Shown here piece by piece: positions 90 to 54,746 of a stretch of DNA of 64,000 nucleotides (positions are counted from its first letter, which is position 1; each line of letters opens with the position of its first letter). Position numbers and translations under genes: made by a program. The notes beneath the pieces are model-generated. The model was not told where the DNA came from and did not search any database. It saw nothing but the letters and a program-made list of their open reading frames with translations. The DNA is from an uncultured Gammaproteobacteria bacterium (GTDB taxonomy: Bacteria; Patescibacteriota; Microgenomatia; UBA8517). The stretch is from contig CAZWNZ010000003.1 in assembly GCA_964635715.1 (NCBI GenBank), positions 37,153 to 101,152 on the forward strand, in the 5' to 3' direction.

Positions 90-575
90 ATGATATCTTG
101 TCAGTTTGAAAATGGAAGTAAAACACATTTAAGACATATTGTTACGGGTGTGATCATTGTTAAAGATCAAAAAGTCCTTCTCGAAAAGCGGGGGTTTTTC
201 AACGGAAAACCTTTATTGGAGTCAGGAAAATGGGCAATAATTGGCGGATATCTTGATATGAACGAAACTCTCGAGGAAGGTATCAGACGTGAGGTTCGTG
301 AAGAAACAGGGTATGAAATAGGGAATCTAAAACTTTTCCATATAAATGATAGTCCAAATAGGCGCAACGAAGATAGGCAAAATGTTGCCTTTAATTTTTT
401 TGCTACTGCCAAATCACAGTCTCCTGTCGAGTCGGAAGAAGTTATTGAGACTAAATGGTTTGATTTAGATGGTCTGCCCCCGAAAGAAGAAATAGCCTTT
501 GACCAGCATGATGAGTTGATGCTTTATAAAAAATACATAAAAGAAAAATTTCCTCTTCCCGTTGTTGGTCGATAG
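90..575 (+). CDS. NUDIX hydrolase
   Basis: Nudix box GX5EX7REUXEEXGU visible: GGYLDMNETLEEGIRREVREETGYEI. Confidence 0.8.
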   Translation: MISCQFENGSKTHLRHIVTGVIIVKDQKVLLEKRGFFNGKPLLESGKWAIIGGYLDMNETLEEGIRREVREETGYEIGNLKLFHINDSPNRRNEDRQNVAFNFFATAKSQSPVESEEVIETKWFDLDGLPPKEEIAFDQHDELMLYKKYIKEKFPLPVVGR

Positions 576-2943: not shown

Positions 2944-3924
2944 ATGCCCACAGCTCGCAAAATAATTATTATCACTTCCTTCATTTTTGTTGCTTTTGCT
3001 GCTTTTGTTACATCAAAATCCAAAACGAATTCTCTTTCTATGGAGGACTTAAAAAAAGGGAAATACCCGGGAAGCGATATAAAAGTAGAGGAGACGCTAA
3101 CTTCCGAAAAAGCATATAACCGTTACATAGTTTCTTATTATTCTCAGAGCCTAAAACTTTTTGCATTACTTCTTGTTCCCAACACTACCAAACCTCAAAA
3201 TGGTTTTCCCGTAATAATTTTGAACCACGGTTACATAATTCCGGATAAATATACTCCGGAAGGGAATTACATTCCGTACTACGACGCTTTTGCAAATGCC
3301 GGCTATATAGTGTTCAAGCCGGATTACCGCGGTCACGGAAAATCGCAAGGTTTCCCAACCAGCGCGTATTATTCCTCAGACTATGTGGTAGATACTCTAA
3401 ATGCTATTTCTTCTATAAAAAAATATCCTGGAGTAGATCCCGCCGGAATTGGTATTTGGGGACATTCAATGGGGGGGAATATTTCTCTAAAAGTTGTGGA
3501 AATCTCCGATGATGTAAAAGCTCTTTCTATTTGGTCAGGGGTCGTTGCACCTATTGATGATATTATTTACAACTGGCAAAAGAGAGTTTCCTACAAACCC
3601 GATCCACTTGATTTTGAACTTAGAAACGATAATTTGGATATACTTTTGCAGAAATATGGAACACCATCGGAAAACCCCGAATTTTGGGACAAAATTGATC
3701 CAAATTACTACCTATCTGGCATAAACATTCCTGTTCAAATACATGTTGGTCTTGCCGATACTCAAGTACCATCCGATTTTTCCAAAGGTCTTTATGAGAG
3801 ATTAAATAAATTTGGGAAAAATGCTGAATACTTTGAATACGAAGGAGCTAACCATGATATCAACCAAAGTTTTGATAAAGCAATGCAAAAAACAATAGAA
3901 TTTTTTGATTTGTATTTAAAATAA
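2944..3924 (+). CDS. alpha/beta-hydrolase (S9 peptidase / dienelactone hydrolase-like), secreted or membrane anchored
   Basis: N-terminal hydrophobic segment and a GHSMGG nucleophile elbow (GxSxG). Confidence 0.65.
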   Translation: MPTARKIIIITSFIFVAFAAFVTSKSKTNSLSMEDLKKGKYPGSDIKVEETLTSEKAYNRYIVSYYSQSLKLFALLLVPNTTKPQNGFPVIILNHGYIIPDKYTPEGNYIPYYDAFANAGYIVFKPDYRGHGKSQGFPTSAYYSSDYVVDTLNAISSIKKYPGVDPAGIGIWGHSMGGNISLKVVEISDDVKALSIWSGVVAPIDDIIYNWQKRVSYKPDPLDFELRNDNLDILLQKYGTPSENPEFWDKIDPNYYLSGINIPVQIHVGLADTQVPSDFSKGLYERLNKFGKNAEYFEYEGANHDINQSFDKAMQKTIEFFDLYLK

Positions 3925-3965
3925 TCCTATTTCAAAATGAATGGTTTTGGCTATAATCCTTTTAA

Positions 3966-4997
3966 ATGAGAGAGCGCATCAAATCAATCGATTTTCTAAG
4001 GATTTTTGCCATTTTGGGGGTGCTTCTTATACACACCACAACCAGGACTTTGGAAGCCTCAAATTTTGATTTAATCGGATTTTCCTGGACTCTTTTTTTA
4101 AATCAAGCGGTACGTTTTGCGGTTCCATTATTTTTTATTATCTCAGGCTTTGTTCTGGAAGTAAGTTGGCGGGATGAAAGTTATTGGAAATTTATTAAAA
4201 GACGTTTTTCAAAAATTCTTATCCCCTATATTTTCTGGAGCCTTATCTACTATTTTTTTGTTTACAATCAGAACCACGATAACATTGCCAAAGTGCTTCT
4301 GACAGGGAACGCTTCCTACCAGCTTTATTTCATCCCGTCTCTTTGTGTGTTTTATCTGATTTTCCCTTTTTTGCACAAGTATTATAAATTGATTTCAAAT
4401 AAATTTATTTTAATTTTTTTGGCTGTTTCTCAGCTTTATTTTCAATACCGCGATTATTATGTCAGATATCTTGATTTTGATGACCCCTTCCGCATCGTCA
4501 TTCTTGCATATTTCTTTTTTATCATAGGAATTGTAGCTGCCCGCAGCAAGGAAAAAATTAATTTATTTGTCCATAAATGGAAGTACGTTTTAGTACCTCT
4601 GGCGGTTGCCAATTGTATTTATGTTTTTTGGGAGGGAAAAGTTAGGTATTTGACAACCGGAAATTATCTTTCTTACTACTCCCAATGGCGGCCGAGCGTA
4701 TTCATTTATACTTTTTTAATGGGTCTTACGCTGTTTCGGCTTTTTAATAAAACCAAATTCCAAACATTTATTATAGAAAAACTTTCTAAAATTTCTTTTC
4801 TTGTTTTTTTCAACCATGTAATTTTTTTGGAAATAACATGGCGATTCATTGGGGTATATATATTTAGTTTGATTGGTGGCAGTCTTTTGGGAAAAATTAT
4901 TTTTGATTCGATATTCTTTTTTATAGTTTTTTCGATTTCATTTATAATTTCCTTTTTTCTTCATAAGATTCCTAAAGCAGAAAGGATAATAGGTTGA
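3966..4997 (+). CDS. acyltransferase family 3 (OafA/YrhL-like) membrane protein
   Basis: IDFLRIFAILGVLLIHT N-terminal signature and a polytopic hydrophobic profile. Confidence 0.7.
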   Translation: MRERIKSIDFLRIFAILGVLLIHTTTRTLEASNFDLIGFSWTLFLNQAVRFAVPLFFIISGFVLEVSWRDESYWKFIKRRFSKILIPYIFWSLIYYFFVYNQNHDNIAKVLLTGNASYQLYFIPSLCVFYLIFPFLHKYYKLISNKFILIFLAVSQLYFQYRDYYVRYLDFDDPFRIVILAYFFFIIGIVAARSKEKINLFVHKWKYVLVPLAVANCIYVFWEGKVRYLTTGNYLSYYSQWRPSVFIYTFLMGLTLFRLFNKTKFQTFIIEKLSKISFLVFFNHVIFLEITWRFIGVYIFSLIGGSLLGKIIFDSIFFFIVFSISFIISFFLHKIPKAERIIG

Positions 4998-5034
4998 TCT
5001 GGTGGAGAAGCCTCCAATATGTTAGCCTTAATTT

Positions 5035-6210
5035 ATGAAAGTAATATTAAAGAGGATGGGAAAGGTAATTTTTTTAACATTAGTTTTTATTGCCGGGTTT
5101 CTGGTTGCGAAAAATTATGTATTACCCAAAATTGCAGGTGAGAGTGTAACGATAGAAAACATTGTTTTGCCAAGAAAAGAGGTCAATGGATTTTTACCAT
5201 ATTGGTTGATTAATAAAGCGGATGCCGACTATTCGAAGTATATTACTAATCTTACTTATTTTAGTTTATCGGTTGGCGAGGACGGATCAATTGCAAAGTA
5301 TACAAATCCCGGGGAAAGCGAACCTGGTTACTACTCCCTGATGAGTGGAAAAGCAGACGCTATTCTGCAAAGCGCAAAAGACAATGATGTCGATTTGTCC
5401 CTGTCGGTTTTTAGCGGTGATAACGAGGTAATTACTCAGATGTTAAATGATCCGGAGACGAGTGCAAAAAATTTGATTGAGAGTGTTACCCCAATAATGC
5501 AGGAATATGGTTTTACCGAACTCAATTTGGATATAGAGCAGCCGAGTGACGCATCTGCCGAAGCCAGACTTAAATTTACACAATTTGTAAAGTCGGTTAG
5601 AAAAAATGTTGATTCGGAAAAAATAAACACTTTGTCAATTGATGTCTCTGCCTCCTCTTTTGTAAAAGAAACGAACCTTGCCGATCCTGCATCTTTTGTT
5701 GAATATGTCGATAAAATAATAATTATGGCCTATGATTATCATTACACAGGGTCATACGTTACTGGTCCTGTGGCTCCTATCTCAGGTGCCGGTATAATTT
5801 CTGAGTTTGATACTGAAGCGGCCGTAGCAGCAGCACTTAAGGTTTATCCTGCCAAAAAAATTATTCTGGGAATACCACTATACGGATATTCCTGGGAAAC
5901 GATCGGGTACACACCACGATCGGCAGTAATACCCGCGTCAGGATTTTCCATAAGCAGTCAAAAGGTTGAAGAGTTTTTAGCCGGGTGCTCAGCTTGTAGC
6001 GCCACCTTTGATGATGTAGACAAAGAAAGTTATGTTATCTATAGGGATCAGGAAACGGGTACATATCACCAGATTTTTTACCCGACAGAAGAATCAACAA
6101 ATTACAAAATCAAGTTGGCAAAACAAAATTCGATTGCAGGTCTAGCACTTTGGGCATTGGGTTATGAGGACTCAACTATTTTAGCACCCCTTGCCTCGTA
6201 CCATAATTAA
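5035..6210 (+). CDS. glycoside hydrolase family 18-like (chitinase/peptidoglycan hydrolase-like), secreted
   Basis: N-terminal TM/signal segment, an LNLDIEQP segment matching the GH18 DxDxE catalytic motif, and MAYDYHY. Confidence 0.6.
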   Translation: MKVILKRMGKVIFLTLVFIAGFLVAKNYVLPKIAGESVTIENIVLPRKEVNGFLPYWLINKADADYSKYITNLTYFSLSVGEDGSIAKYTNPGESEPGYYSLMSGKADAILQSAKDNDVDLSLSVFSGDNEVITQMLNDPETSAKNLIESVTPIMQEYGFTELNLDIEQPSDASAEARLKFTQFVKSVRKNVDSEKINTLSIDVSASSFVKETNLADPASFVEYVDKIIIMAYDYHYTGSYVTGPVAPISGAGIISEFDTEAAVAAALKVYPAKKIILGIPLYGYSWETIGYTPRSAVIPASGFSISSQKVEEFLAGCSACSATFDDVDKESYVIYRDQETGTYHQIFYPTEESTNYKIKLAKQNSIAGLALWALGYEDSTILAPLASYHN

Positions 6211-6838
6211 AGGTGTAAGTTTGTCCGTTCTTTGCTTCCACTGTATGACTGACCAATTCTTTGTCATTATAAGCAAAAATTGCATTGCCGGTGATTACCG
6301 ATATAGTGATGGTGGATTTTTCGCTGTCCCTGACAATTTTTATGTCTCCATCAAATTGAGTCAACAGATATGAGGTTCTAACAGTTATAGGATTCTCTCC
6401 GAGATTACTGTAAGTCACTGTCCCGTCTATCTGTGAGAAAACAATGTTTTTGGGAAGCGTCTGGATAACATCTATTTCTGTATTTTCAATAATATCTACA
6501 ATACAGACACCCAAGAAAGTCAAAGTAAAACTGCCATCCTCGCCTGTAAATAAATTTTCACCTTGTTGGATTTCAATGGGGGAATTTATTTTTGCAGCCT
6601 CCGTTGCCATTCTGGCTTGCCATTTAATTTCTCCATCCATGTCAGAGATGTTTCCTTTTAATGATTGGCTTGGTGCTTTTTCCAAAGAAAAACTCGAAAC
6701 ATATGTTTTTATATTTTCCCTTTCCCCCATAGGGGTTGAAGAAGGTGTTGAATGTGTGATCTGTTTATATAAAACAAATATCCCCCCTCCTATAGCCACC
6801 AGCAGTAAAATAGTAATGAAATATATATTTTTCCTCAT
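6176..6838 (-). CDS. hypothetical secreted/membrane-anchored protein
   Basis: N-terminal TM helix and no recognisable motif. It overlaps the GH18 gene 3' end convergently by about 35 nt. Confidence 0.4.
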   Translation of the reverse strand: MRKNIYFITILLLVAIGGGIFVLYKQITHSTPSSTPMGERENIKTYVSSFSLEKAPSQSLKGNISDMDGEIKWQARMATEAAKINSPIEIQQGENLFTGEDGSFTLTFLGVCIVDIIENTEIDVIQTLPKNIVFSQIDGTVTYSNLGENPITVRTSYLLTQFDGDIKIVRDSEKSTITISVITGNAIFAYNDKELVSHTVEAKNGQTYTFNYGTRQGVLK

Positions 6839-6880
6839 GACGACAAACCTTTCTTAATTATACTAACTAAACTATAATCA

Positions 6881-7684
6881 TTGGATATGAAAAGTACCGG
6901 AAATATTATTTCTGTTAAAAATTTAACTAAAAAATTTAAAGATTTTGAAGCTGTAGACGGCATCTCCTTTAATGTAAAAAAGGGTGAAATATTCGCATTT
7001 CTTGGGCCAAATGGTGCAGGTAAAAGTACTACAATCAAGATTTTAACAACGCTTCTTAATCCAACAAAGGGGGAGGTCAAGGTAAATGGTTTTGATTTGA
7101 AAGATAAAGATTTGATAAGACACTCTTTTGGTATAGTTTTTCAAGATCAATCACTGGATGAAGATTTGACCGCTTGGGAAAATATGTACTTTCATGCAAT
7201 GCTTTACAAAATTTCCCAAAAGGATAGAAAAGACAGAATTGAAGAACTTTTAAAATTTGTTGAACTTCTGGATAATAAAGACAAACTGGTTAAGGATTTT
7301 TCCGGCGGAATGAAAAGAAGGCTTGAAATTGCAAGAGGTCTTTTACACCACCCTAAGATATTATTTTTGGATGAGCCAACTCTAGGATTGGATCCCCAAA
7401 CCAAAAATCGTATGTGGGAATATATAAAAAAGGTAAACGAAACTGAAGGTATGACAGTATTTTTTACTACTCATTATATGGAAGAAGCCGAAAAAATTGC
7501 TCAAAGGATTGCCATAATAGATCGTGGAAAAATTGTTGCAGAGGGAACAAGTAAGGAACTCGAGGAATTAACGGAAACTAAAAATTTAGAAGATGCTTTC
7601 CTTTGTCTCACAGGTCATGAGATCAGGGAAGAATCCGGAAACTTCCTTGACGGTATGAGACATAGAAGAAAAATGCACCCCTAA
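6881..7684 (+). CDS. ABC transporter ATP-binding protein
   Basis: Walker A GPNGAGKST, signature SGGMKRR, Walker B LFLDEPT. Confidence 0.85.
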   Translation: MDMKSTGNIISVKNLTKKFKDFEAVDGISFNVKKGEIFAFLGPNGAGKSTTIKILTTLLNPTKGEVKVNGFDLKDKDLIRHSFGIVFQDQSLDEDLTAWENMYFHAMLYKISQKDRKDRIEELLKFVELLDNKDKLVKDFSGGMKRRLEIARGLLHHPKILFLDEPTLGLDPQTKNRMWEYIKKVNETEGMTVFFTTHYMEEAEKIAQRIAIIDRGKIVAEGTSKELEELTETKNLEDAFLCLTGHEIREESGNFLDGMRHRRKMHP

Positions 7685-14111: not shown

Positions 14112-14540
14112 TTAAATAAAATCCAAAATTCCTTCGGGATATAAAATTAATTTTCCGTTTTTATAATCGTCGATATTCTGCCAGGAGGCAATTCCTCCTT
14201 CGTTTGAGTCAAGAATCTGTAGCTCAGTTTTTTCATACAAATCTTTGTTTACAAGATCTCCTTCAAAAACCATTAGTATTTCATGCCCATTTTTGCCTTC
14301 GTAGGTAAAAATGGTTTCTAGCGTTGTTATAAATCTCACGTTTTTCAGATTGGTTCCCAATTCTTCCTGAAACTCGCGTCTTAAAGCCGCCTTTGCTCTT
14401 TCTCCGAATTCAATTCCACCTCCAAGAAGACGATAAAAAGTTTCTTTTTTAACAGAATCAAATCCGACTCCGGCCAAAATCTTTTCTTTGTGTTTAATAA
14501 TACATACCGCCAAAGGTCTTATGGCATTTTCTTTTAGCAT
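14112..14540 (-). CDS. NUDIX hydrolase
   Basis: Nudix box GGGIEFGERAKAALRREFQEELG. Confidence 0.75.
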   Translation of the reverse strand: MLKENAIRPLAVCIIKHKEKILAGVGFDSVKKETFYRLLGGGIEFGERAKAALRREFQEELGTNLKNVRFITTLETIFTYEGKNGHEILMVFEGDLVNKDLYEKTELQILDSNEGGIASWQNIDDYKNGKLILYPEGILDFI

Positions 14541-15855: not shown

Positions 15856-16299
15856 ATGAGTAGTAAAAAAATCGTTCAAAAAGTAGTCTTAGGAGGCGTC
15901 GTTTTTGATAAGGGACAGAAGTTTCTAGTAATGCAAAGAAATGAAAATGAGGATATTTACCCAGGTTTATGGGAATTGCCAAGTGGTAAGAAGGAAGAGT
16001 TAGAAGATGCTGAAGCCTCACTTTTGAGAGAAATTAAAGAAGAAGCAGGTATAGATGTAGAAATCATTTTGCCTGTTTCTATTTTTAATTATCAGATCGA
16101 AAAAACGGAAGAGATTCGTGATTCAACCCAAATTAATTTTCTGGTCAAAATGAAGCGTGATCAGGAGGTTCATATTAGCAAAGAGCATCAAAATTTTGCT
16201 TGGGTAGGCAAAGACGAACTGAACAAATACAATTTTTCTGATGCAACCAAAAGGGTTTTGCTAAAAGCATTTGAAATTTTGGAAAAGTTAAATATTTAA
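15856..16299 (+). CDS. NUDIX hydrolase
   Basis: Nudix box PSGKKEELEDAEASLLREIKEEAGIDV. Confidence 0.75.
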   Translation: MSSKKIVQKVVLGGVVFDKGQKFLVMQRNENEDIYPGLWELPSGKKEELEDAEASLLREIKEEAGIDVEIILPVSIFNYQIEKTEEIRDSTQINFLVKMKRDQEVHISKEHQNFAWVGKDELNKYNFSDATKRVLLKAFEILEKLNI

Positions 16300-30964: not shown

Positions 30965-31465
30965 TCAAAACTCTTTTACTATTTTTTCTTTTGTCTTTTG
31001 ATTCTCGTCAAATAATAAATCTGCTTCGATTTTTGATCCACTCAGTACTTGAGGTAACCAGTATTTATCGTCATCCCACATTTGGTTGTAAGGAACTTCG
31101 GAAATTTTAAACCACTTGGGAATCATTTCTTCCGATTCAGTTGGCTCACCTTTCCATTTGTTTACCAAATAGACGGTAACTTGCTGGTTCCAATCCGGTT
31201 TGTGAGCGAAATAGAAATTTAAGCAAGCTATCTTAGCTGGGTTTTCTATGAACACCCCAATTTCTTCTTCAACTTCCCGCTTTGCCGCTTCTTCAATTGT
31301 TTCACCATCTTTAAGCTTTCCGCCGGAACCGTTCCATTTTCCTTCTCCAAAACCGCGTTTTTTCATTGCCAGAAGAACAGAATTATCTTTTATAAGAAAT
31401 ACTAAAGTTGCCTGTCTTAATGGAGTAAGTATTTCCTTTTTAATTTCACTAAGTGTTTTCTTCAT
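30965..31465 (-). CDS. NUDIX hydrolase (MutT-like)
   Basis: Nudix box GGKLKDGETIEEAAKREVEEEIGV. It overlaps the rarA stop by 4 nt. Confidence 0.8.
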   Translation of the reverse strand: MKKTLSEIKKEILTPLRQATLVFLIKDNSVLLAMKKRGFGEGKWNGSGGKLKDGETIEEAAKREVEEEIGVFIENPAKIACLNFYFAHKPDWNQQVTVYLVNKWKGEPTESEEMIPKWFKISEVPYNQMWDDDKYWLPQVLSGSKIEADLLFDENQKTKEKIVKEF

Positions 31466-49172: not shown

Positions 49173-50132
49173 TTGTTTTATGCCATGAAATTTATCCATT
49201 TTGTAAGACATCTTTTTGTTCCTTATGTAAGCAATAATCAGAAAGCAAAGCTTCTACACCCTATCAGTCTTTTTGTAATAGCACTGGTTTTGGTTAGCTT
49301 TCAGTTTGTGCTTACTTTTGCCGGTAAATCATTCCCGAGAGTATTGGGATATGCGGCAAATATTTCTCCGGGGGAGGTTATAAGGCTTACCAATGTGGAA
49401 AGGTCAAATAACGGACTGGCTCCTTTGGCATCAAATGATGTGCTTTCTCAGGCAGCAATAGCTAAAGGAAATGATATGTTGGCTAAAGGCTATTGGGCAC
49501 ATTTTGCACCTGACGGAACATCTCCTTGGACGTTTTTTTTAAATTTTGGATACAAATATAGGTATGCAGGAGAGAACCTTGCTCGTGACTTTGCGGATGC
49601 GGGAAGTGCAGTAAATGCCTGGATGAATTCTCCTACACATCGCGAAAATATTTTAAATGCAAACTACCAGGAAATAGGAATAGGCGTTGTTGAAGGGAGT
49701 CTGGCGGGAGTCGATACCACAATAATTGTTCAATTTTTTGGTACGCCTTTAGAAAATACAGCTGCTAATATTCCACAGGCCAAAGCTCAGGATGTAGCTT
49801 CTGTTGCAACAGCAAAAAATTCGGTGGTGCCTAAACCAACAACAACACCTTCCCCAACGCCGATACCAACTCCGACTGCTACGCCGATTCCGGAGCCTGA
49901 GCAAATAGTGAATGCAACCAGTTCGTCTATCACTTTTGTTTCACCGTTTTCTTCTACAAAAGGCATTTCACTTTTAGTTACGGGTTTGCTTTTGATGCTT
50001 TTGTCGATTGATTTTGTTGTGGTAAAGCGTAATAAAATTATCAGAACCGGAGGTAGAACTCTTGCACACATAGCTTTTCTGGGAATGATTTTGGCGGTTA
50101 TTTTAATATTAAAGGCGGGGCAAATAATATAA
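49173..50132 (+). CDS. CAP/SCP/PR-1-like domain protein (YkwD-like), with PT linker and C-terminal TM
   Basis: RLTNVERSNNGLAPL ... WMNSPTHRENILNANYQEIGIGVV CAP-domain motifs. Confidence 0.7.
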   Translation: MFYAMKFIHFVRHLFVPYVSNNQKAKLLHPISLFVIALVLVSFQFVLTFAGKSFPRVLGYAANISPGEVIRLTNVERSNNGLAPLASNDVLSQAAIAKGNDMLAKGYWAHFAPDGTSPWTFFLNFGYKYRYAGENLARDFADAGSAVNAWMNSPTHRENILNANYQEIGIGVVEGSLAGVDTTIIVQFFGTPLENTAANIPQAKAQDVASVATAKNSVVPKPTTTPSPTPIPTPTATPIPEPEQIVNATSSSITFVSPFSSTKGISLLVTGLLLMLLSIDFVVVKRNKIIRTGGRTLAHIAFLGMILAVILILKAGQII

Positions 50133-50147
50133 TATAGTAAATAAAAT

Positions 50148-50408
50148 ATGAAAGCATTTCTTAAAGATTTAAGTCACTATATGGTTCTTTTTGGGATACT
50201 TTTAGCCGGTTTTACCGGATTAATTCTTTTTTCTTACGATAAGTCTTACCAGGTAGCAGTCTCAGGTGCTCTGGTTTTGTCTTATATATCATGGGGAATA
50301 GTACATCACTACCTTCACAGAGATTTACATCTGGAGACGGTGATTGAATATGCAGTGGTGGGTATTTTGGGATTTGTGATAATCTTTTCTCTAATAATTA
50401 GGACGTGA
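50148..50408 (+). CDS. small membrane protein, hypothetical
   Basis: Three hydrophobic helices in 86 aa. Confidence 0.35.
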   Translation: MKAFLKDLSHYMVLFGILLAGFTGLILFSYDKSYQVAVSGALVLSYISWGIVHHYLHRDLHLETVIEYAVVGILGFVIIFSLIIRT

Positions 50409-50447: not shown

Positions 50448-51353
50448 ATGGGAACAAGTAATCTAAAAAAAGTAACAAAAGCGGTTATCCCGGCAGCTGG
50501 CTTTGGAACGCGTTTTCTTCCCCAAACTAAAGCGATGCCTAAAGAGATGCTTCCGATTGTTGATAAGCCGGTAATTCAGTATGTTGTTGAAGAGCTTGTT
50601 GAGGCTGGAATCAAAGATATTGTTATAGTAACAGGCTACCATAAACGTACAATTGAAGATCATTTTGATTTCCCCAATTTGGATCTTATCGAAAATCTTA
50701 AGATGGGTGGAGAAAAAAAGAAGCCTCTTTTGGAACAAGTTGAGAAAATTGCCAATATGGCAAATTTTGTATATGTCAGACAAAAAGGGCCATATGGCAA
50801 CGGCACACCTCTTTTGAACGCTAGACAAATTATTGGAGACGAACCGTTTATTTACGCATGGAGCGACGATTTTATTGTAGCAGAACCATCAAGGTTTAAA
50901 CAACTTATTAAAACTTATGAAAAGTATGGCTATAGCTGTATGTCCGGAATAAAAGCGAATAAAGATGAAGATTATGATAGATATGGTTTTGTCGGTGGTC
51001 ATGAGTTGGAAAAAGGAGTAATTGATGCAGAAGTGATTGTTGAAAAACCAGGTAAAGAGAACGCACCTAGCGATTTGGCTACGGTTTCAGGGTTTTTATT
51101 TACGCCGGATATTTTCAATTATCTTGACAAAGCCATGGAAAGGCTTAATGGTGGTCAAGAATTTTATTACAACGATGCTCTTAAATTAATGCTTGAGGAT
51201 GGCAAGCATGTTTTGGGAGTCGAGATTGTTAACGGAAAGTATTATGACACCGGTAATAAGCTTGAATATCTTAAAACTGTGGTTGAATTCGCTCTAAAAC
51301 ACCCCGACATGAACGGAAAATTCAGGGAATATCTTAAAACTCTTGACCTTTAA
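50448..51353 (+). CDS. galU: UTP--glucose-1-phosphate uridylyltransferase
   Basis: KAVIPAAGFGTRFLPQTKAMPKEMLPIVDKPVIQYVVEE N-terminal nucleotidyltransferase signature. Confidence 0.85.
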   Translation: MGTSNLKKVTKAVIPAAGFGTRFLPQTKAMPKEMLPIVDKPVIQYVVEELVEAGIKDIVIVTGYHKRTIEDHFDFPNLDLIENLKMGGEKKKPLLEQVEKIANMANFVYVRQKGPYGNGTPLLNARQIIGDEPFIYAWSDDFIVAEPSRFKQLIKTYEKYGYSCMSGIKANKDEDYDRYGFVGGHELEKGVIDAEVIVEKPGKENAPSDLATVSGFLFTPDIFNYLDKAMERLNGGQEFYYNDALKLMLEDGKHVLGVEIVNGKYYDTGNKLEYLKTVVEFALKHPDMNGKFREYLKTLDL

Positions 51354-51355
51354 AT

Positions 51356-53278
51356 ATGAAGCTACTTGTAACAGGTGCGGCGGGATTTATTGGCGCAAAT
51401 TTTGTCCACTATTGGCTGGAAAAATACCCAAATGATGAAGTAAGGGTAATCGATGCTTTGACGTACGCCGGGAATATTGAAAATTTATCTCCTGTAATTA
51501 AAAAAATTAAGTTTTTTGAAGCTGATATTAATGATAGGGTAAAAGTATCTGAGGCAATGAAAGGGGTGGATGTGGTTGTTCATTTTGCGGCAGAAAGTCA
51601 TGTTGACAGGAGTGTTTTTGACCCCAGTAGATATTGGCAGACAAATGTTCATGGTACCTTGACCCTTCTTGAAGAGGCCCAAAAGTTGGGAATTAATAGA
51701 TTTCATCATATTTCAACAGATGAAGTATATGGTGAATTGCCTTTGGGTACAGATGAAAAATTTAGTGAAGAAACTCCCTATGCTCCGCGCCCCGACAATT
51801 TGTATGCTCTTAGCAAAGCAGAAGCCGATAAAGTGGTAATGGATTTTTATCAGAGAACGGGGATGTATATTACGATTTCAAATTGTTCCAATAATTACGG
51901 TCCATATCAATTTCCCGAGAAATTTATTCCAATTGTCGTTACTAATTTAATTGACGGAATACAAGTTCCTGTACATGGAGATGGTCGAAATGAAAGGGAT
52001 TGGATACATACAATGGATCATGCTTCAGCAATAGATCTTATTTTACAAAAAGGCAAAAGAGGAGAGACTTATCTGGTTGGTTCCAACAATGATAGAAATA
52101 ACGATTATATAGCCAGAAAAGTGGTTGAGCTTTATGGAAAGGATGATAGCGTTATTCGTCATGTACCGGATAGACACAGTAACGATAGACGCTATGCAAT
52201 TAATGCCACAAAAATTATTACAGATCTTGGTTGGAAACCAAAGATCGGCCGTGACAATTTTGATGACGGTTTGAAGGAAACTATAAAATGGTATAAAGAA
52301 AACCAGGATTGGTGGCGCCCGCTTCTGAAAAGACGGGCTCTTATAACCGATGACGAGAAAACCATCAGTGCTTTTATTACTTTAGACCGTGAAACCGGAA
52401 AAACTAAGTTCATTTTTGGAAAGCTTCAAGACCAAGATAAGATAAAACTTCCGGAAAGCGACCTCAAAGAACATTTTGTTGAGGAAAACCTTGTTCGCTA
52501 TGAAATTGTTGAGAAAAATATTCAGTCTAAAAAATGGTATCAGGCAAGTAGTGAAGAAATTAAAAAAGAAATACATGCTTTAGCTATGAACCCTTCAACT
52601 TTTGGGTATGTTGAAGATTTGGCAATGAGGGAAGATAAAATTGACGGAGATACACTTTTGAAACTAACCAAAATAGTTCACGGTGACGCTGAATATGGTA
52701 TTTATGGAATCGGCACATGGTTTGAAGTTGAAAACAAAAAGAAAGAAAGAAGAATGGAGGGTTATTATTCGTGGGGTTGGGGACCTAAGTCCGGCGCAAA
52801 ACTTCTCGTTCTCATTAAAAGACATGGTGAGATAACTCATTTTGCATTTCAAAGAGAGGCAAAATTCCCGACAGGTTCGGTAGTTTACAATCTTGCCGGA
52901 GGGTTCCCTAGATTGAACGAAAGTGTTTTGAATTTCATTATCCGCTCTCTTAAAAAAGATTTAAATCTTAATGTTAAGGATGGTGATGTAACCTTGACTG
53001 AAATAGTTAGTCTTGGCCGTGTTGTTCCAGATTCAGGTATGACAAACAATCACCCAAATCTGTATGCAATAATATTGGAACTTGGGGATTCAAAATTCCC
53101 TGAGGTTCAAGCAGGAGACAAATTTGAAGAAGGCGAAGGTATTGTCCTTTGGCCTATAAGTGAAGTTTCGGAGATTGTTAGTAAATGTGACGATTCTTAC
53201 TTTTTGTCTGCCATATCCAGACTAACTCTATCCGGAATATATACAATAAATTTATCGGTAAATAATAAAAAAGAATAA
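51356..53278 (+). CDS. rfbB: dTDP-glucose 4,6-dehydratase fused to a ~300-aa C-terminal domain of unknown function
   Basis: The N-terminal 330 aa carry LLVTGAAGFIGANFV and YALSKAEADKVV (YxxxK). The C-terminal half has no canonical motif except a degenerate Nudix-like segment GGFPRLNESVLNFIIRSLKKDL (G-X5-E-X7-R). Confidence 0.75.
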   Translation: MKLLVTGAAGFIGANFVHYWLEKYPNDEVRVIDALTYAGNIENLSPVIKKIKFFEADINDRVKVSEAMKGVDVVVHFAAESHVDRSVFDPSRYWQTNVHGTLTLLEEAQKLGINRFHHISTDEVYGELPLGTDEKFSEETPYAPRPDNLYALSKAEADKVVMDFYQRTGMYITISNCSNNYGPYQFPEKFIPIVVTNLIDGIQVPVHGDGRNERDWIHTMDHASAIDLILQKGKRGETYLVGSNNDRNNDYIARKVVELYGKDDSVIRHVPDRHSNDRRYAINATKIITDLGWKPKIGRDNFDDGLKETIKWYKENQDWWRPLLKRRALITDDEKTISAFITLDRETGKTKFIFGKLQDQDKIKLPESDLKEHFVEENLVRYEIVEKNIQSKKWYQASSEEIKKEIHALAMNPSTFGYVEDLAMREDKIDGDTLLKLTKIVHGDAEYGIYGIGTWFEVENKKKERRMEGYYSWGWGPKSGAKLLVLIKRHGEITHFAFQREAKFPTGSVVYNLAGGFPRLNESVLNFIIRSLKKDLNLNVKDGDVTLTEIVSLGRVVPDSGMTNNHPNLYAIILELGDSKFPEVQAGDKFEEGEGIVLWPISEVSEIVSKCDDSYFLSAISRLTLSGIYTINLSVNNKKE

Positions 53279-53847
53279 TGGGATCACAAAATATAATAAA
53301 AACCTCAATTGAGGGAGTAGTCTTGGTCCAAAGACCAATAAAAACTGATAATAGAGGTTTTTTTCACGAAATTTTTCGAAAAGAAGAACTTAAAGAGGCA
53401 ACGGGGGTTGGATTTGATCCGATCCAATGGAGTCATTCAATGAGCCATCCCGGAGTAATCCGTGCGGTTCATACTGAAAACTGGAATAAGCTTATCTACC
53501 CTGTTACGGGAATTTTGTATGCCCCAATCGTAGATCTGAGACCGGAGTCAAAAACATTTGGTAAGACTGAATACATAACTATTGATAATACTAAAGAGGA
53601 TTCTCCCCGCCGGGCGATATTTTTACCAAAAGGGGGAATTGGAAATTCCATTTGTGCTTTGGGGGACTATGACCTTCATTATTTGTATCTGGTTGACGAA
53701 TATTGGGATGACTCAAAAGCAAAAGGTGTTGCCTGGGACGATCCTGACTTGAATATTCAATGGCCTGTAGACAGTCCTATTCTATCGGAGCGTGATAGAA
53801 ATAATCCTACCCTGAGGGAAATGTTTCCTGATAAATTTACTCAATGA
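53278..53847 (+). CDS. rfbC: dTDP-4-dehydrorhamnose 3,5-epimerase
   Basis: RmlC cupin motifs (DNRGFFHEIF, WSHSMSHPGVIRAVH). Confidence 0.8.
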   Translation: MGSQNIIKTSIEGVVLVQRPIKTDNRGFFHEIFRKEELKEATGVGFDPIQWSHSMSHPGVIRAVHTENWNKLIYPVTGILYAPIVDLRPESKTFGKTEYITIDNTKEDSPRRAIFLPKGGIGNSICALGDYDLHYLYLVDEYWDDSKAKGVAWDDPDLNIQWPVDSPILSERDRNNPTLREMFPDKFTQ

Positions 53848-54746
53848 AAAAAATATTAATAATTGGAGGCAGCGGCATGGTTGCTTCAAGGTTTGTCGAT
53901 CTTATGAAGGACAAATATGAGATTACCGTTTCTGACGAGAAAACATTGGATATTACCAACAAAGAAGCTGTAATAAATTATTTTGACATAAGTACATTTG
54001 AAAAGGTTATTAATTTCGCTGCATTCACAAATGTTGATGGGGCAGAAGCTCAAAGAGGAGATGAAACCGGATTGGTGTGGAATTTGAATGTTGAAGGACC
54101 AAGGTATTTATCCGAGGTTTGTAAAAATAAAAATATATTTTTGATACACATTTCCACAGACTTTATTTTTCCAGGTAGCGAAGTGAACCCTGGTCCCTAT
54201 TCTGAAGATGCCGAGCTGCCAAGTGGTTTAGATGACAAGATGGGGTGGTACGGTTGGACCAAAAACAGAGCAGAAAAAGTGGTTTCCGAATCTGGCTGCA
54301 AGTATGCAATTGTAAGATATGGATATCCATTTAGAGCCTCGGAGTATGATATAAAGAAAGATTGGGCAAGAAATTTACTCGGGTTATATAACGAACAAAA
54401 ATTGTACCCTCTTTTTGCCGACCAGATTCAAAGCGTAATGTTTATTGATGATTTAGCCTTGCCACTTAGTAAAATTATAGATGACGAAATTCAAGGTGTT
54501 TTTCACTTGGTTTCCAAAGATACAACGACTCCGTACGAAATAGGTTCCTATTTATTAGAAAAGTATGTTGGAAAACCGGTGGAACTTCAAAAAGGTTCAA
54601 TGATTGAATTTTTAAAAGCTCCCGGCAGAACTCCAAGGCCAAGATTGGGTGGACTCAAGGTTGAAAAGACTGAAGAAACTCTGGGTGTAGAAATGCCGAC
54701 TTGGAAAGAAATGATTGATAAATTTATAGATCAGATTAAAAAATAA
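53844..54746 (+). CDS. rfbD: RmlD-family NAD(P)-dependent reductase (dTDP-4-dehydrorhamnose reductase-like)
   Basis: MKKILIIGGSGMVASRF Rossmann start, ~300 aa, positioned after rfbB/rfbC. Confidence 0.55.
   Translation: MKKILIIGGSGMVASRFVDLMKDKYEITVSDEKTLDITNKEAVINYFDISTFEKVINFAAFTNVDGAEAQRGDETGLVWNLNVEGPRYLSEVCKNKNIFLIHISTDFIFPGSEVNPGPYSEDAELPSGLDDKMGWYGWTKNRAEKVVSESGCKYAIVRYGYPFRASEYDIKKDWARNLLGLYNEQKLYPLFADQIQSVMFIDDLALPLSKIIDDEIQGVFHLVSKDTTTPYEIGSYLLEKYVGKPVELQKGSMIEFLKAPGRTPRPRLGGLKVEKTEETLGVEMPTWKEMIDKFIDQIKK

Follow-up and report, generated by a model that had tools for sequence, protein, structure and literature searches.

Fusion of dTDP-glucose 4,6-dehydratase to a predicted Nudix-fold domain with a remodelled Nudix box

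A dTDP-glucose 4,6-dehydratase (RfbB/RmlB) gene in the 64,000-nucleotide stretch of DNA analyzed in this work (hereafter, the window) encodes a C-terminal extension that is predicted to contain a Nudix fold of the ADP-ribose/NDP-sugar pyrophosphatase type. In the clade of fused proteins to which it belongs, the Nudix box is remodelled rather than random or degenerate. As judged from the sequence, the extension would be a hydrolysis-impaired NDP-sugar-binding module that acts as a sensor or scaffold on RmlB, a reading in which we place moderate confidence. The databases list the fused protein under the name "dTDP-glucose 4,6-dehydratase" or as a "hypothetical protein" (UniRef100_A0A0G0LLG5 and AKM82859.1, for example).

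Results

Gene, operon and dehydratase half

The open reading frame runs from an ATG to a TAA and has no internal stop, as the initial annotation had stated (Table 1). Only 2 nt lie between its start and the stop codon of the galU-like gene upstream, and the ATG of rfbC overlaps its TAA (TAATG). The rmlA models score much weaker than TIGR01099 on the upstream nucleotidyltransferase, which is therefore of the GalU and not of the RmlA type. With such a neighbour, the dehydratase may use either dTDP-glucose or UDP-glucose. The downstream rfbC and rfbD products score 116 bits with TIGR01221 (cutoff 156) and 140 bits with TIGR01214 (cutoff 224), respectively. They correspond to the ordinary rhamnose route, and no 3-ketoreductase or aminotransferase adjoins the fusion gene in the window. 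This arrangement recurs: each of the 20 fused loci has galU upstream of the fusion, directly adjoining it in most, and rfbC-rfbD were near it in nearly all, again adjoining in most.

Table 1. Coordinates of the fusion gene, its predicted parts and motifs, and its operon partners
Feature	Position in window	Strand	Remarks
GalU-type sugar-1-phosphate nucleotidyltransferase, upstream operon partner	50448..51353	+	TIGR01099 266 bits, under cutoff of 327
Whole fusion gene, RfbB/RmlB + Nudix-like extension	51356..53278	+	640 aa; ORF list
dTDP-glucose 4,6-dehydratase domain, aa 1-323	51356..52324	+	TIGR01181, Pfam GDP_Man_Dehyd/Epimerase, Foldseek
GxxGxxG (GAAGFIG), aa 7-13	51374-51394	+	NAD-binding motif
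S-T-D-E (STDEVYG), aa 120-126	51713-51733	+	catalytic Thr-Asp-Glu
YxxxK (YALSK), aa 150-154	51803-51817	+	catalytic Tyr-x3-Lys
Linker, aa 324-376	52325..52483	+	strands/beta-hairpin (AFITLDRETGKTKFIFG), then disordered stretch
Helical bundle, aa 377-427	52484..52636	+	KKW...EDLAxR; W394, D421 and R/H425 invariant
Three-stranded N-terminal beta domain, ADPRase/NDPSase type, aa 428-476	52637..52783	+	ends in invariant S472-W473
Nudix alpha-beta-alpha core, aa 477-630	52784..53245	+	AF2, hhalign, Foldseek
K503, predicted beta-phosphate-binding Arg position (Bd-NDPSase R64)	52862..52864	+	K503 to P0222 R102 to 5C7Q R64
Remodelled Nudix box, aa 516-538, GFPRLNESVLNFIIRSLKKDLNL	52901..52969	+	register from hhalign
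PDSGMTNN hallmark, aa 558-565	53027..53050	+	aligned to specificity loop L8, Bd G115...E119 (5C7Q 112-119)
L9-like flexible loop GDKFEEGEG, aa 587-595	53114..53140	+	D588 ~ Bd-NDPSase catalytic Glu140 (predicted)
DDSYFL, aa 612-617, N-terminus of helix alpha3	53189..53206	+	counterpart of NDPSase D-X-K, here D-x-Y
rfbC (dTDP-4-dehydrorhamnose 3,5-epimerase), downstream partner	53278..53847	+	TIGR01221 E 2e-33
rfbD (dTDP-4-dehydrorhamnose reductase), downstream partner	53844..54746	+	TIGR01214 E 7e-41

Residues 1 to 323 are predicted to form a complete dTDP-glucose 4,6-dehydratase in which the catalytic motifs are present. This part matches TIGR01181 from end to end (residues 2 to 323 on model positions 1 to 321; 387.1 bits versus a cutoff of 365.1), and its model superposes on Streptococcus suis RmlB (1KER) with 47% identity and a TMt of 0.86. 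Foldseek matches to 1KER, 1KEP, 6BI4 and 1R66 had E values of 1e-34 to 1e-37, TMt values of 0.86 to 0.93 and an rmsd of ~2 Å. The RfbB identity proposed for this half in the initial annotation thus agrees with the above-cutoff score, the motifs and the RmlB fold. Canonical RmlB/RfbB enzymes (S. suis 1KER, Salmonella enterica 1G1A and DesIV 1R66) are 40 to 47% identical over the N-terminal 323 residues, with TMt values of 0.81 to 0.93, but end at about 310 to 360 aa, whereas the window protein continues to residue 640; none of the PDB matches of the fusion to RmlB structures spans the extension.

Conservation of the fusion

The same fusion, which the initial annotation had proposed to look for in related genomes, was found in at least 125 distinct full-length proteins of 626 to 644 aa and in no fewer than 120 clusters formed at 90% identity (562 to 644 aa, nearly all 626 to 644 aa). 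Intact fusion ORFs are present in 20 species-representative genomes, 19 of them with 629 to 642 aa and one with 993 aa that include an intein. The named genomes among these 20 belong mostly to Candidatus Woesebacteria, two genomes with the fusion are complete (CP011214.1 and CP066686.1), and a protein identical to that of the window (P0228) is recorded on a 107,706-bp NCBI contig. That the long ORF is an assembly join, a frameshift artefact or a two-gene read-through has a negligible probability. The gene is indeed split on three metagenome contigs (L001, L007 and L008), but the splits fall at three different places and can be explained by a quasi-duplication of 29 nt and by frameshifts of a single base, of which one lies at a T-run and another on a contig of 2.9x coverage. 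The junction between RfbB and the extension is unbroken in L007 and L008 as well as in the at least 125 full-length proteins, including those of complete genomes. Given the many intact homologues and the two complete genomes, an artefact is rejected for the lineage. The fused gene is under purifying selection (dN 0.14 to 0.35, with saturated dS), and identity to the window protein is 49 to 79% in the Nudix-like part versus 69 to 89% in RfbB.

Architecture and fold of the extension

The extension had been described as an uncharacterised single domain without recognisable motifs beyond a Nudix-like box. Its uncharacterised status stands, as a Pfam search of residues 324 to 640, i.e., the last ~317 residues, matched no family even at an E value of ≤10. 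The other two statements had to be revised: the extension consists of four parts (Table 1), and it carries several invariant family motifs, namely, KKW, EDLAxR, SWGxGxxSGA, KF, PDxGMTNN and DDxYFL. The linker was found in fused proteins only, according to the family alignments; its pLDDT is ~50 in the isolated model, and in the full-length model its strands reach ~62 to 79, with residues 360 to 376 below 50. The conserved family alignment begins at the helical bundle, which is family-specific and without counterpart in solved ADPRase/NDPSase structures; the AF2 helices at residues 374 to 423 have pLDDT values of 85 to 96. In the same type of model, the strands of the beta domain comprise residues 432 to 442, 451 to 459 and 465 to 473, and the core helices residues 524 to 536 (alpha1), 601 to 610 and 614 to 626. 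The AF2 model of residues 324 to 640 has a pLDDT of 76.5, and the pTM of 0.85 of the full-length model suggests a defined arrangement of domains.

A Foldseek search with the extension model returned 118 PDB matches at an E value of ≤1e-3. The best 50 of these 118 were all Nudix proteins of the ADP-ribose/NDP-sugar pyrophosphatase class (E ~1e-7; TMt 0.52 to 0.69), including NUDT5, the Escherichia coli GDP-mannose hydrolase YffH, Bd-NDPSase, Bacillus methanolicus ACT and the Mt, Ec and Kp ADPRases, and the alignments extended over ~200 columns across whole ADPRase/NDPSase chains. Alignment of the fused clade with Pfam-positive Nudix proteins (P0219, P0222, P0225, P0226 and P0227) by hhalign gave 98.7% with an E value of 3.9e-16 over residues 477 to 627, with the box aligned. 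The AlphaFold analysis suggested in the initial annotation, together with hhalign, hence accords with its proposal of a Nudix-fold module of the sugar-nucleotide pyrophosphatase type. The 21.1-bit cutoff of PF00293 is passed by the family members P0164, P0178, P0219, P0222, P0225 and P0226, and the window protein gave no match to this NUDIX profile at an E value of ≤10; its homology to Nudix proteins at the sequence level is established exclusively by transitivity. With the single sequence, the best matches were the ADPRase domains of NadM-Nudix (2QJT/2QJO, PRK05379), at non-significant E values of 0.006 to 1.

The Nudix box

The pattern G-x5-E-x7-R by which the box had initially been recognised is by itself weak evidence for a Nudix protein: the window ORFs contain 8 matches in 20,403 residues, or ~0.12 per 300 aa, at least four of which are strict Nudix boxes and one of which is the motif of the fusion. 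The four strict boxes bear out the earlier remark that the window holds many Nudix genes. The register proposed for the fusion motif was nevertheless correct, because hhalign places exactly the segment of residues 516 to 538 on the Nudix box, pairing RSLKKDLNL of the window protein with RELFEETSI of the Pfam-positive proteins. In the AF2 model, the box falls on a loop-helix-loop element, with the helix at 524 to 536.

The catalytic signature GX5EX7REUXEEXGU, in which E16, E19 and E20 are metal ligands, is absent from the window protein. Positions G1, E7, R15, U17 and U23 are present, and E16, E19, E20 and G22 are replaced by S531, K534, D535 and N537, respectively. The initial statement that the EExGU glutamates are missing holds for E19, whereas position 20 is kept, though only as Asp; E16 and G22 are replaced as well. 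The box, initially called degenerate, is better described as remodelled, as the replacements (Ser, Lys and Asp) are each conserved in at least 90% of the 125 fused proteins: G1, E7 and R15 are found in 100%, Ser at position 16 in 119, Lys at position 19 in 112 and Asp at position 20 in 118, with position 22 being variable. Deep-branching fused members retain RKLEEELGI or RKLEDDLGI, in which positions 19/20 are EE or DD and G22 is kept. In the NDPSase subfamily, the Mg2+ ligands are E16N, E19N and E20N, and the single substitution E140Q in Bd-NDPSase inactivates the enzyme or traps its substrate (PMC4629899). A similar case is PDB entry 3O61, the title of which describes an E100A mutant of YffH crystallised with intact GDP-mannose.

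Predicted ligand contacts

Residues were mapped to solved enzymes through two chained alignments at 10 to 25% identity, with an additional extrapolation for D588. On this basis, position 503, which is Lys in 121 and Arg in 4 of the 125 fused proteins, would correspond to R64 of Bd-NDPSase, which binds the beta-phosphate (PMC4629899). The PDSGMTNN hallmark falls on loop L8, the specificity loop of NDP-sugar hydrolases (PMC4629899); D559, G561, T563, N564 and N565 are invariant in all 125 fused proteins and also across the family. The L9-like loop has a low pLDDT in the isolated-domain model. Its residues D588 and E591 are paired by hhalign with D183 and E186 of the Pfam-positive Nudix proteins, and D183 would in turn match Bd E140 by the extrapolated alignment; position 588 is Asp in 84 and Glu in 21 fused proteins, and position 591 is Glu in 122. 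Another predicted contact is D613 (124/125), the counterpart of Bd D163, where DDSYFL is aligned with KDSFTL of the Pfam-positive proteins. The Asp-X-Lys motif at helix alpha3, through which NDPSases recognise the sugar (PMC4629899), is not found here, as the sequence is D613-S-Y615 and Tyr replaces Lys in 124 of the 125 proteins. From its position just upstream of the GA motif, S472-W473 appears to lie near R37/E38 of Bd-NDPSase, which stack on the base (PMC4629899). The Pro located 15 residues past G22 in ADPRases (the Dunn rule, cited in PMC4629899) is absent: S552 is found at +15, and the nearest Pro, P558, at +21. The putative nucleoside, phosphate and sugar contacts thus stay conserved in the fused clade, and E522 (E7), D535 (E20), D588 and E591 together could still hold one metal ion.

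Standalone family members

A family profile retrieved 159 representatives at an E value of ≤1e-3 among 1.84 billion, corresponding to ~160 clusters at 50% identity and mostly from CPR/Patescibacteria. The invariants of this family are the KKW/EDLAxR helices, SWxxGxxxGA, KF, GG, LGxxxPDxGMTNN and DDxYFLxxxxR, and the window protein has 18 of the 18 invariant columns of the 43-sequence alignment (A2). Many standalone members carry a canonical REUXEEXGU helix, for example P0160 (GGFSVGNEEAFQTFLREIEEEVGL), and P0084 is a tandem-duplicated member of the family. One standalone gene (L030) lies divergent from rmlA-rfbB-rfbC-rfbD and keeps E16, E19 and E20, another (L029) adjoins rfbB/cupin/rmlD-like genes, and for most standalone members examined, rfb genes were not nearby. 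The fused domain is best read as a descendant of a pyrophosphatase family whose members are also encoded next to rfb genes.

Discussion

Comparison with known systems

Among solved enzymes, E. coli YffH (3O52/3O61) and Bdellovibrio Bd3179 (5C7Q/5C7T) belong to the same fold class, with a three-stranded beta domain and a Nudix core, and share the basic beta-phosphate residue, the L8-type loop and the Asp at the alpha3 N-terminus, at an identity to the window protein of 10 to 16%. The latter differs from them in lacking E16, E19 and G22, in having D-x-Y in place of D-X-K, and in its additional helical bundle of ~50 residues, in which a Trp and an Arg are invariant, and its fusion to RmlB. Dimerisation by N-terminal domain swapping is among the defining traits of NDPSases (de la Pena et al. 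2015, PMC4629899). Of the ADPRases (human NUDT5, E. coli NudF and Mycobacterium tuberculosis Rv1700), NUDT5 gave the best Foldseek E values among the best 50 matches, and NadM-Nudix (2QJT/2QJO) provides a precedent for C-terminal fusion of the same Nudix subtype to an enzyme of nucleotide metabolism. These proteins have intact boxes and are active, whereas the window protein lacks the diagnostic Pro and has another partner and pathway. The ADPRase-type fold has likewise been kept as a sensor after loss of catalytic residues in NrtR, TRPM2 NUDT9-H and DBC1 (PMC5389931), which sense ADPR/NAD metabolites; their partners are DNA-binding, channel and deacetylase-regulating modules, unlike the biosynthetic SDR enzyme found here. 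EvaA (4J7G), a Nudix-superfamily protein whose substrate is the RmlB product, contains two Nudix-like domains in each chain versus one in the window protein.

A genetic parallel is Gmm/WcaH/NudD, the gene of which reportedly adjoins gmd, encoding GDP-mannose 4,6-dehydratase, in the colanic acid cluster of E. coli (Frick, Townsend and Bessman 1995). There, too, a Nudix protein with a non-standard box is linked genetically to a 4,6-dehydratase of an NDP-hexose and would tune an NDP-sugar pool; Gmm is, however, an active enzyme on its own and belongs to another Nudix subtype, whereas the window domain is fused.

Alternative readings

It is unlikely, though to be taken seriously, that the extension is still an enzyme, either an NDP-sugar pyrophosphatase that serves flux control or "housecleaning" of dTDP-sugars, as has been suggested for Gmm/WcaH beside Gmd, or a Nudix enzyme of altered chemistry with a reduced or metal-poor site. 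The residues of such a site would be E522, D535, D588, E591 and K534. Retention of E7, R15, D535, E591 and an acidic residue at 588 (105/125), fixation of the replaced box positions without drift, the glutamates or aspartates of deep-branching fused members and the complete set of ligands in the standalone relative beside the rfb operon all speak for catalysis, and a modified box combined with another chemistry has precedent among Nudix enzymes, for example, in the EvaA 2,3-dehydratases (PMC8987622). Against this, two of the three Mg2+-ligand glutamates are gone, one of them exchanged for a cationic Lys in most fused proteins, G22 is not conserved, and the single Glu changes in Bd-NDPSase and YffH mentioned above suffice to inactivate the enzyme or trap the substrate. 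A specific enzymatic version, in which the fused dehydratase delivers dTDP-4-keto-6-deoxyglucose to an EvaA-like NDP-hexose 2,3-dehydratase, is very improbable. These 2,3-dehydratases are indeed Nudix-superfamily proteins, their substrate is precisely the RmlB product, and their box is degenerate, with one dead pocket that holds dTDP-rhamnose (PMC8987622); in addition, a tandem-duplicated family member exists. But neither Hexose_dehydrat nor any other Pfam family matched the window protein (E≤10) or the 43 family members searched (E≤1), the best 50 of the 118 structural matches are ADPRases/NDPSases and not EvaA, the model has a single Nudix core, and the neighbours are rfbC and rfbD in place of a 3-ketoreductase or aminotransferase. 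With no family match, the wrong fold neighbours and a single core, this version is weakly refuted.

Binding of ADP-ribose or another NAD-derived metabolite, by which the extension would shield or control RmlB, an enzyme with a tight NAD+ dependence, in the manner of ACT, DBC1 or NrtR, is quite improbable. NadM-Nudix domains were the best single-sequence matches, the top folds include NUDT5 and B. methanolicus ACT, ACT works by clearing ADPR, which inhibits an NAD-dependent dehydrogenase at submicromolar levels (PMC12926040), and there are non-catalytic Nudix domains that serve as sensors of NAD metabolites (PMC5389931). These single-sequence matches are, however, non-significant, Ser occupies the position of the ADPRase Pro, an inactive domain could not clear ADPR, and both the neighbourhood and the fusion point to NDP-sugar genes and not to NAD metabolism. 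We consider it similarly improbable that the extension is a purely structural relic, i.e., a scaffold for RmlB dimerisation or stability without ligand. The homodimeric nature of both partner families (for the NDPSase/ADPRase side, PMC4629899), the tight packing suggested by the full-length pTM and the loss of catalytic residues are compatible with a relic, but the invariant residues map beyond the core hydrophobics to the pocket (K503, PDxGMTNN, D613 and W473), and the remodelled box residues are conserved as well.

Proposed mechanism

In the Woesebacteria fusion lineage, the three metal-binding glutamates were swapped for a fixed Ser/Lys/Asp set while the putative contact positions were kept. 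According to the sensor or scaffold reading favoured above, the extension would have lost Mg2+-dependent pyrophosphate hydrolysis, Lys534 may stand in for the lost metal charge, and a nucleoside-diphosphate sugar would still be bound, with a dTDP- or UDP-6-deoxyhexose from the same pathway as the most plausible ligand. The structural neighbours, among which are enzymes of ADP-ribose, of GDP-mannose and of UDP-glucose, do not narrow the ligand. Non-hydrolytic Nudix binders are documented (PMC5389931; PMC4629899), and the dead Nudix-type pocket of EvaA binds dTDP-L-rhamnose (PMC8987622). The two extension domains of an RmlB homodimer might pair like ADPRase-type dimers, and the extension would tune RmlB as a ligand sensor, a retention site or an obligatory structural partner. 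This putative role is in line with the non-catalytic module, regulatory or channelling, that the initial annotation had suggested. The strict Ser/Lys/Asp conservation would fit an altered catalytic site equally well.

A more far-reaching version, which we regard as doubtful, is that the R-S-L-x-K-D site is a metal-independent nucleotide-sugar receptor that makes RmlB the feedback-controlled step of 6-deoxyhexose synthesis. The operon of this lineage is without an RmlA-type, dTDP-rhamnose-inhibited nucleotidyltransferase. In such a receptor, a pathway-associated pyrophosphatase would have been recruited as an allosteric module and then turned into a pseudoenzyme; in a stronger variant, the site would have gained a new, non-hydrolytic catalysis on the RmlB product.

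Implications

The fusion finding overturns no established principle. Half of an annotated protein is an unrecognised domain; once named, it marks out a new Nudix subfamily that is confined mostly to CPR bacteria and has no Pfam model. The fusion and two independent gene neighbourhoods tie this subfamily to NDP-6-deoxyhexose synthesis, and the rfb link provides a testable first hint at the function of the standalone members. The graded series from REUXEE over RKLEEE to RSLKKD may serve as a model for a Nudix hydrolase that becomes a probable ligand-binding pseudoenzyme. CPR bacteria are ultra-small, their metabolism is minimal, and they rely on the cell surface; if the proposal is true, they would control rhamnose synthesis economically, through a sensor built into the enzyme of its first committed step.

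Integrity and distribution of the fusion

The fusion gene is one uninterrupted ORF, 640 codons from ATG to TAA, in agreement with the initial annotation, which had read it as an RfbB fusion without an internal stop. It begins 2 bases beyond the stop codon of its upstream neighbor, its own stop codon and the following start codon overlap as TAATG, and no break in base composition was found across it. Residues 2-323 match the dTDP-glucose 4,6-dehydratase equivalog model TIGR01181 from end to end (387 bits; cutoff, 365), and the NAD-binding GAAGFIG, catalytic S-T-D-E, and YxxxK motifs were all identified. In the full-length AlphaFold model (pLDDT 86.2, pTM 0.85), the RfbB half can be superposed on experimental structures of RmlB (for 1KER, 47% identity and a TM of 0.86).

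The same fusion, which the initial annotation had suggested looking for in related genomes, was found there repeatedly. A whole-protein search retrieved the identical protein on a 107.7-kb NCBI contig and, with clustering at 90% identity, at least 120 further clusters with the fusion. These proteins have 562-644 aa (626-644 aa in nearly all cases) and match the query with coverages of 87-100% and identities of 65-88%. Their database names are only "dTDP-glucose 4,6-dehydratase" or "hypothetical protein," and their sources are mostly Candidatus Woesebacteria and Microgenomates. Among one-genome-per-species contigs, an intact fusion ORF is present at 20 loci, two of them from complete genomes (CP011214.1 and CP066686.1); 19 of these ORFs encode 629-642 aa, and one encodes 993 aa because of an intein. 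This intein of ~363 aa (Cys...His-Asn, followed by Thr, with a LAGLIDADG-type endonuclease) is inserted exactly within the catalytic motif of the RfbB half, between Ser and Thr-Asp-Glu, and is supported by matches to the Pfam families Intein_splicing (30.8 bits), Hint_2, and LAGLIDADG_3.

In three metagenome contigs, the gene is split, each time at a different position. In L001, the break is at the domain junction, where the "GLKETV(N/E)W" segment has a quasi-duplicate of 29 nt. In L007 and L008, the reading frame is shifted by a single base within RfbB, in one case at a T-run and in the other on a contig of 2.9x coverage. These breaks are probably assembly or sequencing errors; genuine pseudogenes are possible. 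Since they fall at different positions and have error-like causes, and intact fusions occur in the clusters and loci mentioned, the possibility raised at the outset that the long ORF is an assembly artefact is excluded for the fusion lineage and is hardly credible for this gene. Querying the protein collection with the extension alone returned 14 proteins and none of the full-length fusions, which is due to a word-index limitation and not to true rarity. Several of the 14 were apparently standalone or split, and a rare fusion with possible gene fission was considered on this basis; it was rejected in view of the frameshifts at three places and the number of full-length clusters.

Features of the fusion, its neighborhood, and the loci compared
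Feature	Locus	Position	Remarks
Fusion gene	Window	51356-53278 (+)	RfbB, aa 1-323; extension, aa 324-640
Fusion-specific linker	Window	aa 324-376	Short strands/beta-hairpin and a disordered stretch (full-length model)
Family-specific helical bundle	Window	aa 377-427	Invariant Trp394, Asp421, and Arg/His425; absent from solved relatives (full-length model)
Three-stranded N-terminal beta domain	Window	aa 428-476	ADPRase/NDPSase-typical (full-length model)
Alpha-beta-alpha Nudix core	Window	aa 477-630	Box on loop-helix-loop 516-538 (full-length model)
Degenerate Nudix box	Window	aa 516-538; nt 52901-52969	Motif of the initial annotation
GalU-type nucleotidyltransferase of the rhamnose operon	Window	50448-51353	TIGR01099, 266 bits, below its cutoff; rmlA models far weaker
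CAP/SCP-domain membrane protein	Window	49173-50132	
86-aa membrane protein	Window	50148-50408	
Strict Nudix boxes	Window	246-314 (+); 15985-16053 (+); 14352-14420 (-); 31253-31321 (-)	GX5EX7REUXEEXGU; four ORFs
Fusion gene with intein	L027 (CAZIPM010000001.1)	3943-6924	Orthologous; 993 aa
Break in fusion gene	L001	~5872-5900	Quasi-duplicate
Break in fusion gene	L007	~3100-3150	Frameshift
Break in fusion gene	L008	~1730-1760	Frameshift
409-441-aa partner protein	L002	8780-10105	Also in L003, L004, L031, and L033
409-441-aa partner protein	L034	3771-5000; 6008-7333	
HD-domain gene	L029	5304-5912 (-)	Precedes the standalone member
Gap without called gene	L002	7813-8780	After the standalone gene
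Gap without called gene	L005	7882-8647	After the standalone gene

Identity of the extension

Direct sequence annotation of the ~317-residue extension came back empty: no Pfam family matched even at an E of ≤10, residues 324-640 gave nothing significant against Pfam, NCBIfam, and the PDB (phmmer), the ADP-ribose pyrophosphatase domain of NadM-Nudix proteins being a non-significant match at an E of 0.006-1, and a 43-sequence family profile found no Nudix protein in the PDB. The evidence of homology therefore comes from a fold search and from comparing profiles with each other. An AlphaFold model of residues 324-640 based on 43 family sequences (mean pLDDT, 76.5; >80 across most of the folded core), a check proposed by the initial annotation, showed a Nudix fold, and its best 50 PDB matches are all Nudix-superfamily ADP-ribose or NDP-sugar pyrophosphatases (E about 1e-7; target-normalised TM, 0.52-0.69), among them human NUDT5, E. 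coli YffH, Bdellovibrio Bd3179, the B. methanolicus activator ACT, and the ADPRases of M. tuberculosis and Klebsiella. Several proteins matched by the family profile reach the Pfam NUDIX gathering score, and the comparison of the fused-clade domains with five weak-tail hits of this profile, four of which pass the Pfam NUDIX cutoff, gave a probability of 98.7% (E of 3.9e-16 over 146 columns). The alignment pairs RSLKKDLNL of the window with RELFEETSI, and the Nudix-box segment proposed initially is thus the right one in the right register. The bare G-x5-E-x7-R pattern is by itself poor evidence; it has 8 matches in the 20,403 ORF residues of the window, of which four are strict Nudix boxes and one is the fusion motif. 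The four ORFs with strict boxes confirm the earlier remark that the window holds many Nudix genes.

The full-length model divides the extension into four parts (see the table). The extension descends from, and by prediction works like, ADPRase/NDPSase-type Nudix enzymes. It lacks their signature box, the D-X-K motif, and agreement with the ADPRase Pro rule, scores below the Pfam NUDIX threshold, and is best placed in a family of Nudix-like proteins that is unnamed and occurs mostly in CPR bacteria. Only 159 members of this family were retrieved at an E of ≤1e-3 when 1.84 billion cluster representatives were searched exhaustively with an HMM. The extension profile recovers standalone proteins of ~240-300 aa, none of which has a name or a Pfam domain; the named sources are Collierbacteria and other Patescibacteria.

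Replacements in the box and predicted contact residues

Many standalone family members possess a fully canonical box, e.g., GGFSVGNEEAFQTFLREIEEEVGL, so that the ancestral state was presumably an active hydrolase. The RfbB-fused clade forms a graded series, with RKLEEELGI, RKLEDDLGI, or RKLKDELGI in the deep branches (46-49% identity) and RS[LIM]xKDLxL in the branch of the window. G1, E7, and R15 never vary among 125 distinct full-length fusions, of which 119 have Ser at position 16, 112 have Lys at position 19, and 118 have Asp at position 20, with position 22 being variable. These counts bear out the loss of the EExGU glutamates reported initially. In the NDPSase subfamily, E16, E19, and E20 are the Mg2+ ligands (PMC4629899). 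Together with the fold and the profile-profile homology, these replacements support the earlier view of a Nudix-fold module that derives from a sugar-nucleotide pyrophosphatase and has a degraded box.

Contact residues were mapped by chained alignments (window to Pfam-positive relatives, and the relative P0222 to Bd3179, a Bdellovibrio NDPSase) in combination with published contacts; drawn from low-identity alignments, all correspondences with Bd3179 are putative. The beta-phosphate-binding Arg64 would correspond to Lys503 (K/R in 125/125), the specificity loop L8 (G115...E119) to the invariant family hallmark PDxGMTNN, and the sugar-recognition Asp163 of the D-X-K motif to Asp613 (124/125), with Tyr replacing Lys. 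The invariant Ser472-Trp473 would be located at the place of the base-stacking Arg37/Glu38 strand, and the catalytic-loop Glu140 may, by extrapolation, map to Asp588 (D/E in 105/125), with Glu591 nearby (122/125). A coupling between box decay and the loss of Glu after GMTNN was rejected, as canonical-box members likewise have GMTNNHP.

Across orthologues, identity to the window protein is 49-79% for the Nudix-like part versus 69-89% for the RfbB half. The dN of the Nudix-like domain to orthologues (0.14-0.35) points to purifying selection, a conclusion that is qualitative only because synonymous sites are saturated. In the family member P0084 (571 aa), the entire Nudix-like module is duplicated in tandem, with a degenerate box in the first copy and a near-canonical one (EAQEELGL) in the second, an arrangement that recalls the active-plus-dead pocket architecture of EvaA.

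Genomic context

Each of the 20 fused loci has a galU-like gene upstream of the fusion, in most cases directly next to it. Most of the 20 have the full order galE - CAP-domain protein - small membrane protein - galU-like - rfbB::extension - rfbC - rfbD - trmD(-) - GT2 in common. The CAP/SCP-domain and 86-aa membrane proteins between galE and galU are likewise encoded upstream of the fusion in 20/20 loci and are also found near the rfb genes of L030, a locus with a standalone family member. The transferase of the window is of the GalU type, unlike the short RmlA-type enzyme of L030, and no RmlA-type gene is present within the 64 kb; the pathway could thus start from UDP-glucose instead of dTDP-glucose, or its transferase may be promiscuous. 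Control might then also be exerted at the RmlB step, which is speculation.

Two standalone members in which E16, E19, and E20 are all intact adjoin 6-deoxyhexose genes in other CPR lineages: that of L030 (5998-6771) is divergent from an rmlA-rfbB-rfbC-rfbD operon, and that of L029 (6010-6795) is oriented convergently to rfbB and to genes for an RmlD-like protein and a small cupin. Gene context is a useful clue to function only at these two loci, as the remaining standalone loci examined showed no 6-deoxyhexose link and mostly hypothetical neighbors. Degenerate-box standalone members of the Collierbacteria type are consistently adjacent to the gene of a conserved 409-441-aa protein (30-41% identity between distant loci; faint HD-domain match, E of 0.009), and the two genes seem to form a pair. 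The L029 member, too, is preceded by a gene with an HD domain. At two loci, the standalone gene is followed by ~770-970 nt without a called gene. An Rfam scan of such ORF-free gaps identified only tRNAs and rRNA, with one tRNA at the start of the L005 gap and no match in the L002 gap, which has no ORF of >87 aa.

Proposed function

An RmlB with intact motifs is joined to a Nudix-fold domain in which a conserved Ser/Lys/Asp set replaces the metal-binding glutamates, and the nucleoside, phosphate, and sugar contacts appear to persist. Mg2+-dependent hydrolysis would have been lost in this domain and NDP-sugar binding retained, with Lys534 making up the charge formerly supplied by the metal. The ligand would likely be a dTDP- or UDP-6-deoxyhexose from its own pathway, and the domain may sense or retain this ligand or be an obligatory structural partner for the dimeric dehydratase. 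We regard this joint reading as the most economical and give it about an even chance of being correct. Consistent with it, the proteins of both parent families form homodimers, NDPSases complete their pocket in trans (PMC4629899), non-hydrolytic Nudix binders are documented (PMC4629899, PMC5389931), and the dead Nudix-type pocket of EvaA binds dTDP-rhamnose (PMC8987622).

Residual or altered catalysis through E522, D535, D588, and E591, acidic residues that are invariant or frequent among the fusions, is rather unlikely, the three Mg2+ ligands being mostly replaced by Ser, Lys, and Asp. Sensing of ADPR or NAD metabolites, which the ADPRases among the fold matches bring to mind, is improbable. 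The domain may also be a pure scaffold, a role that its decayed box would allow; the conservation of the predicted pocket residues makes this a long shot. An EvaA-like 2,3-dehydratase is very improbable; the identity was considered for the extension and rejected, having neither sequence support nor support among the top-ranked folds.

Precedents and relevance

Each ingredient of the RmlB-Nudix fusion has a precedent. Nudix fusions are known from NadM-Nudix; the Nudix enzyme Gmm/WcaH is encoded beside GDP-mannose 4,6-dehydratase and represents a Nudix protein coupled to a dehydratase gene; and NrtR, TRPM2 NUDT9-H, and DBC1 are precedents as non-catalytic Nudix sensors. The searchable literature yielded no paper on an RmlB-Nudix fusion or a CPR Nudix family; the fusion proteins are already in public databases, where their C-terminal half is unannotated. 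The fusion is a real, conserved feature, and the initial interpretation is supported. Although not a conceptual surprise, the fusion family is of value for annotation and offers a natural series that probably leads from enzyme to binder.
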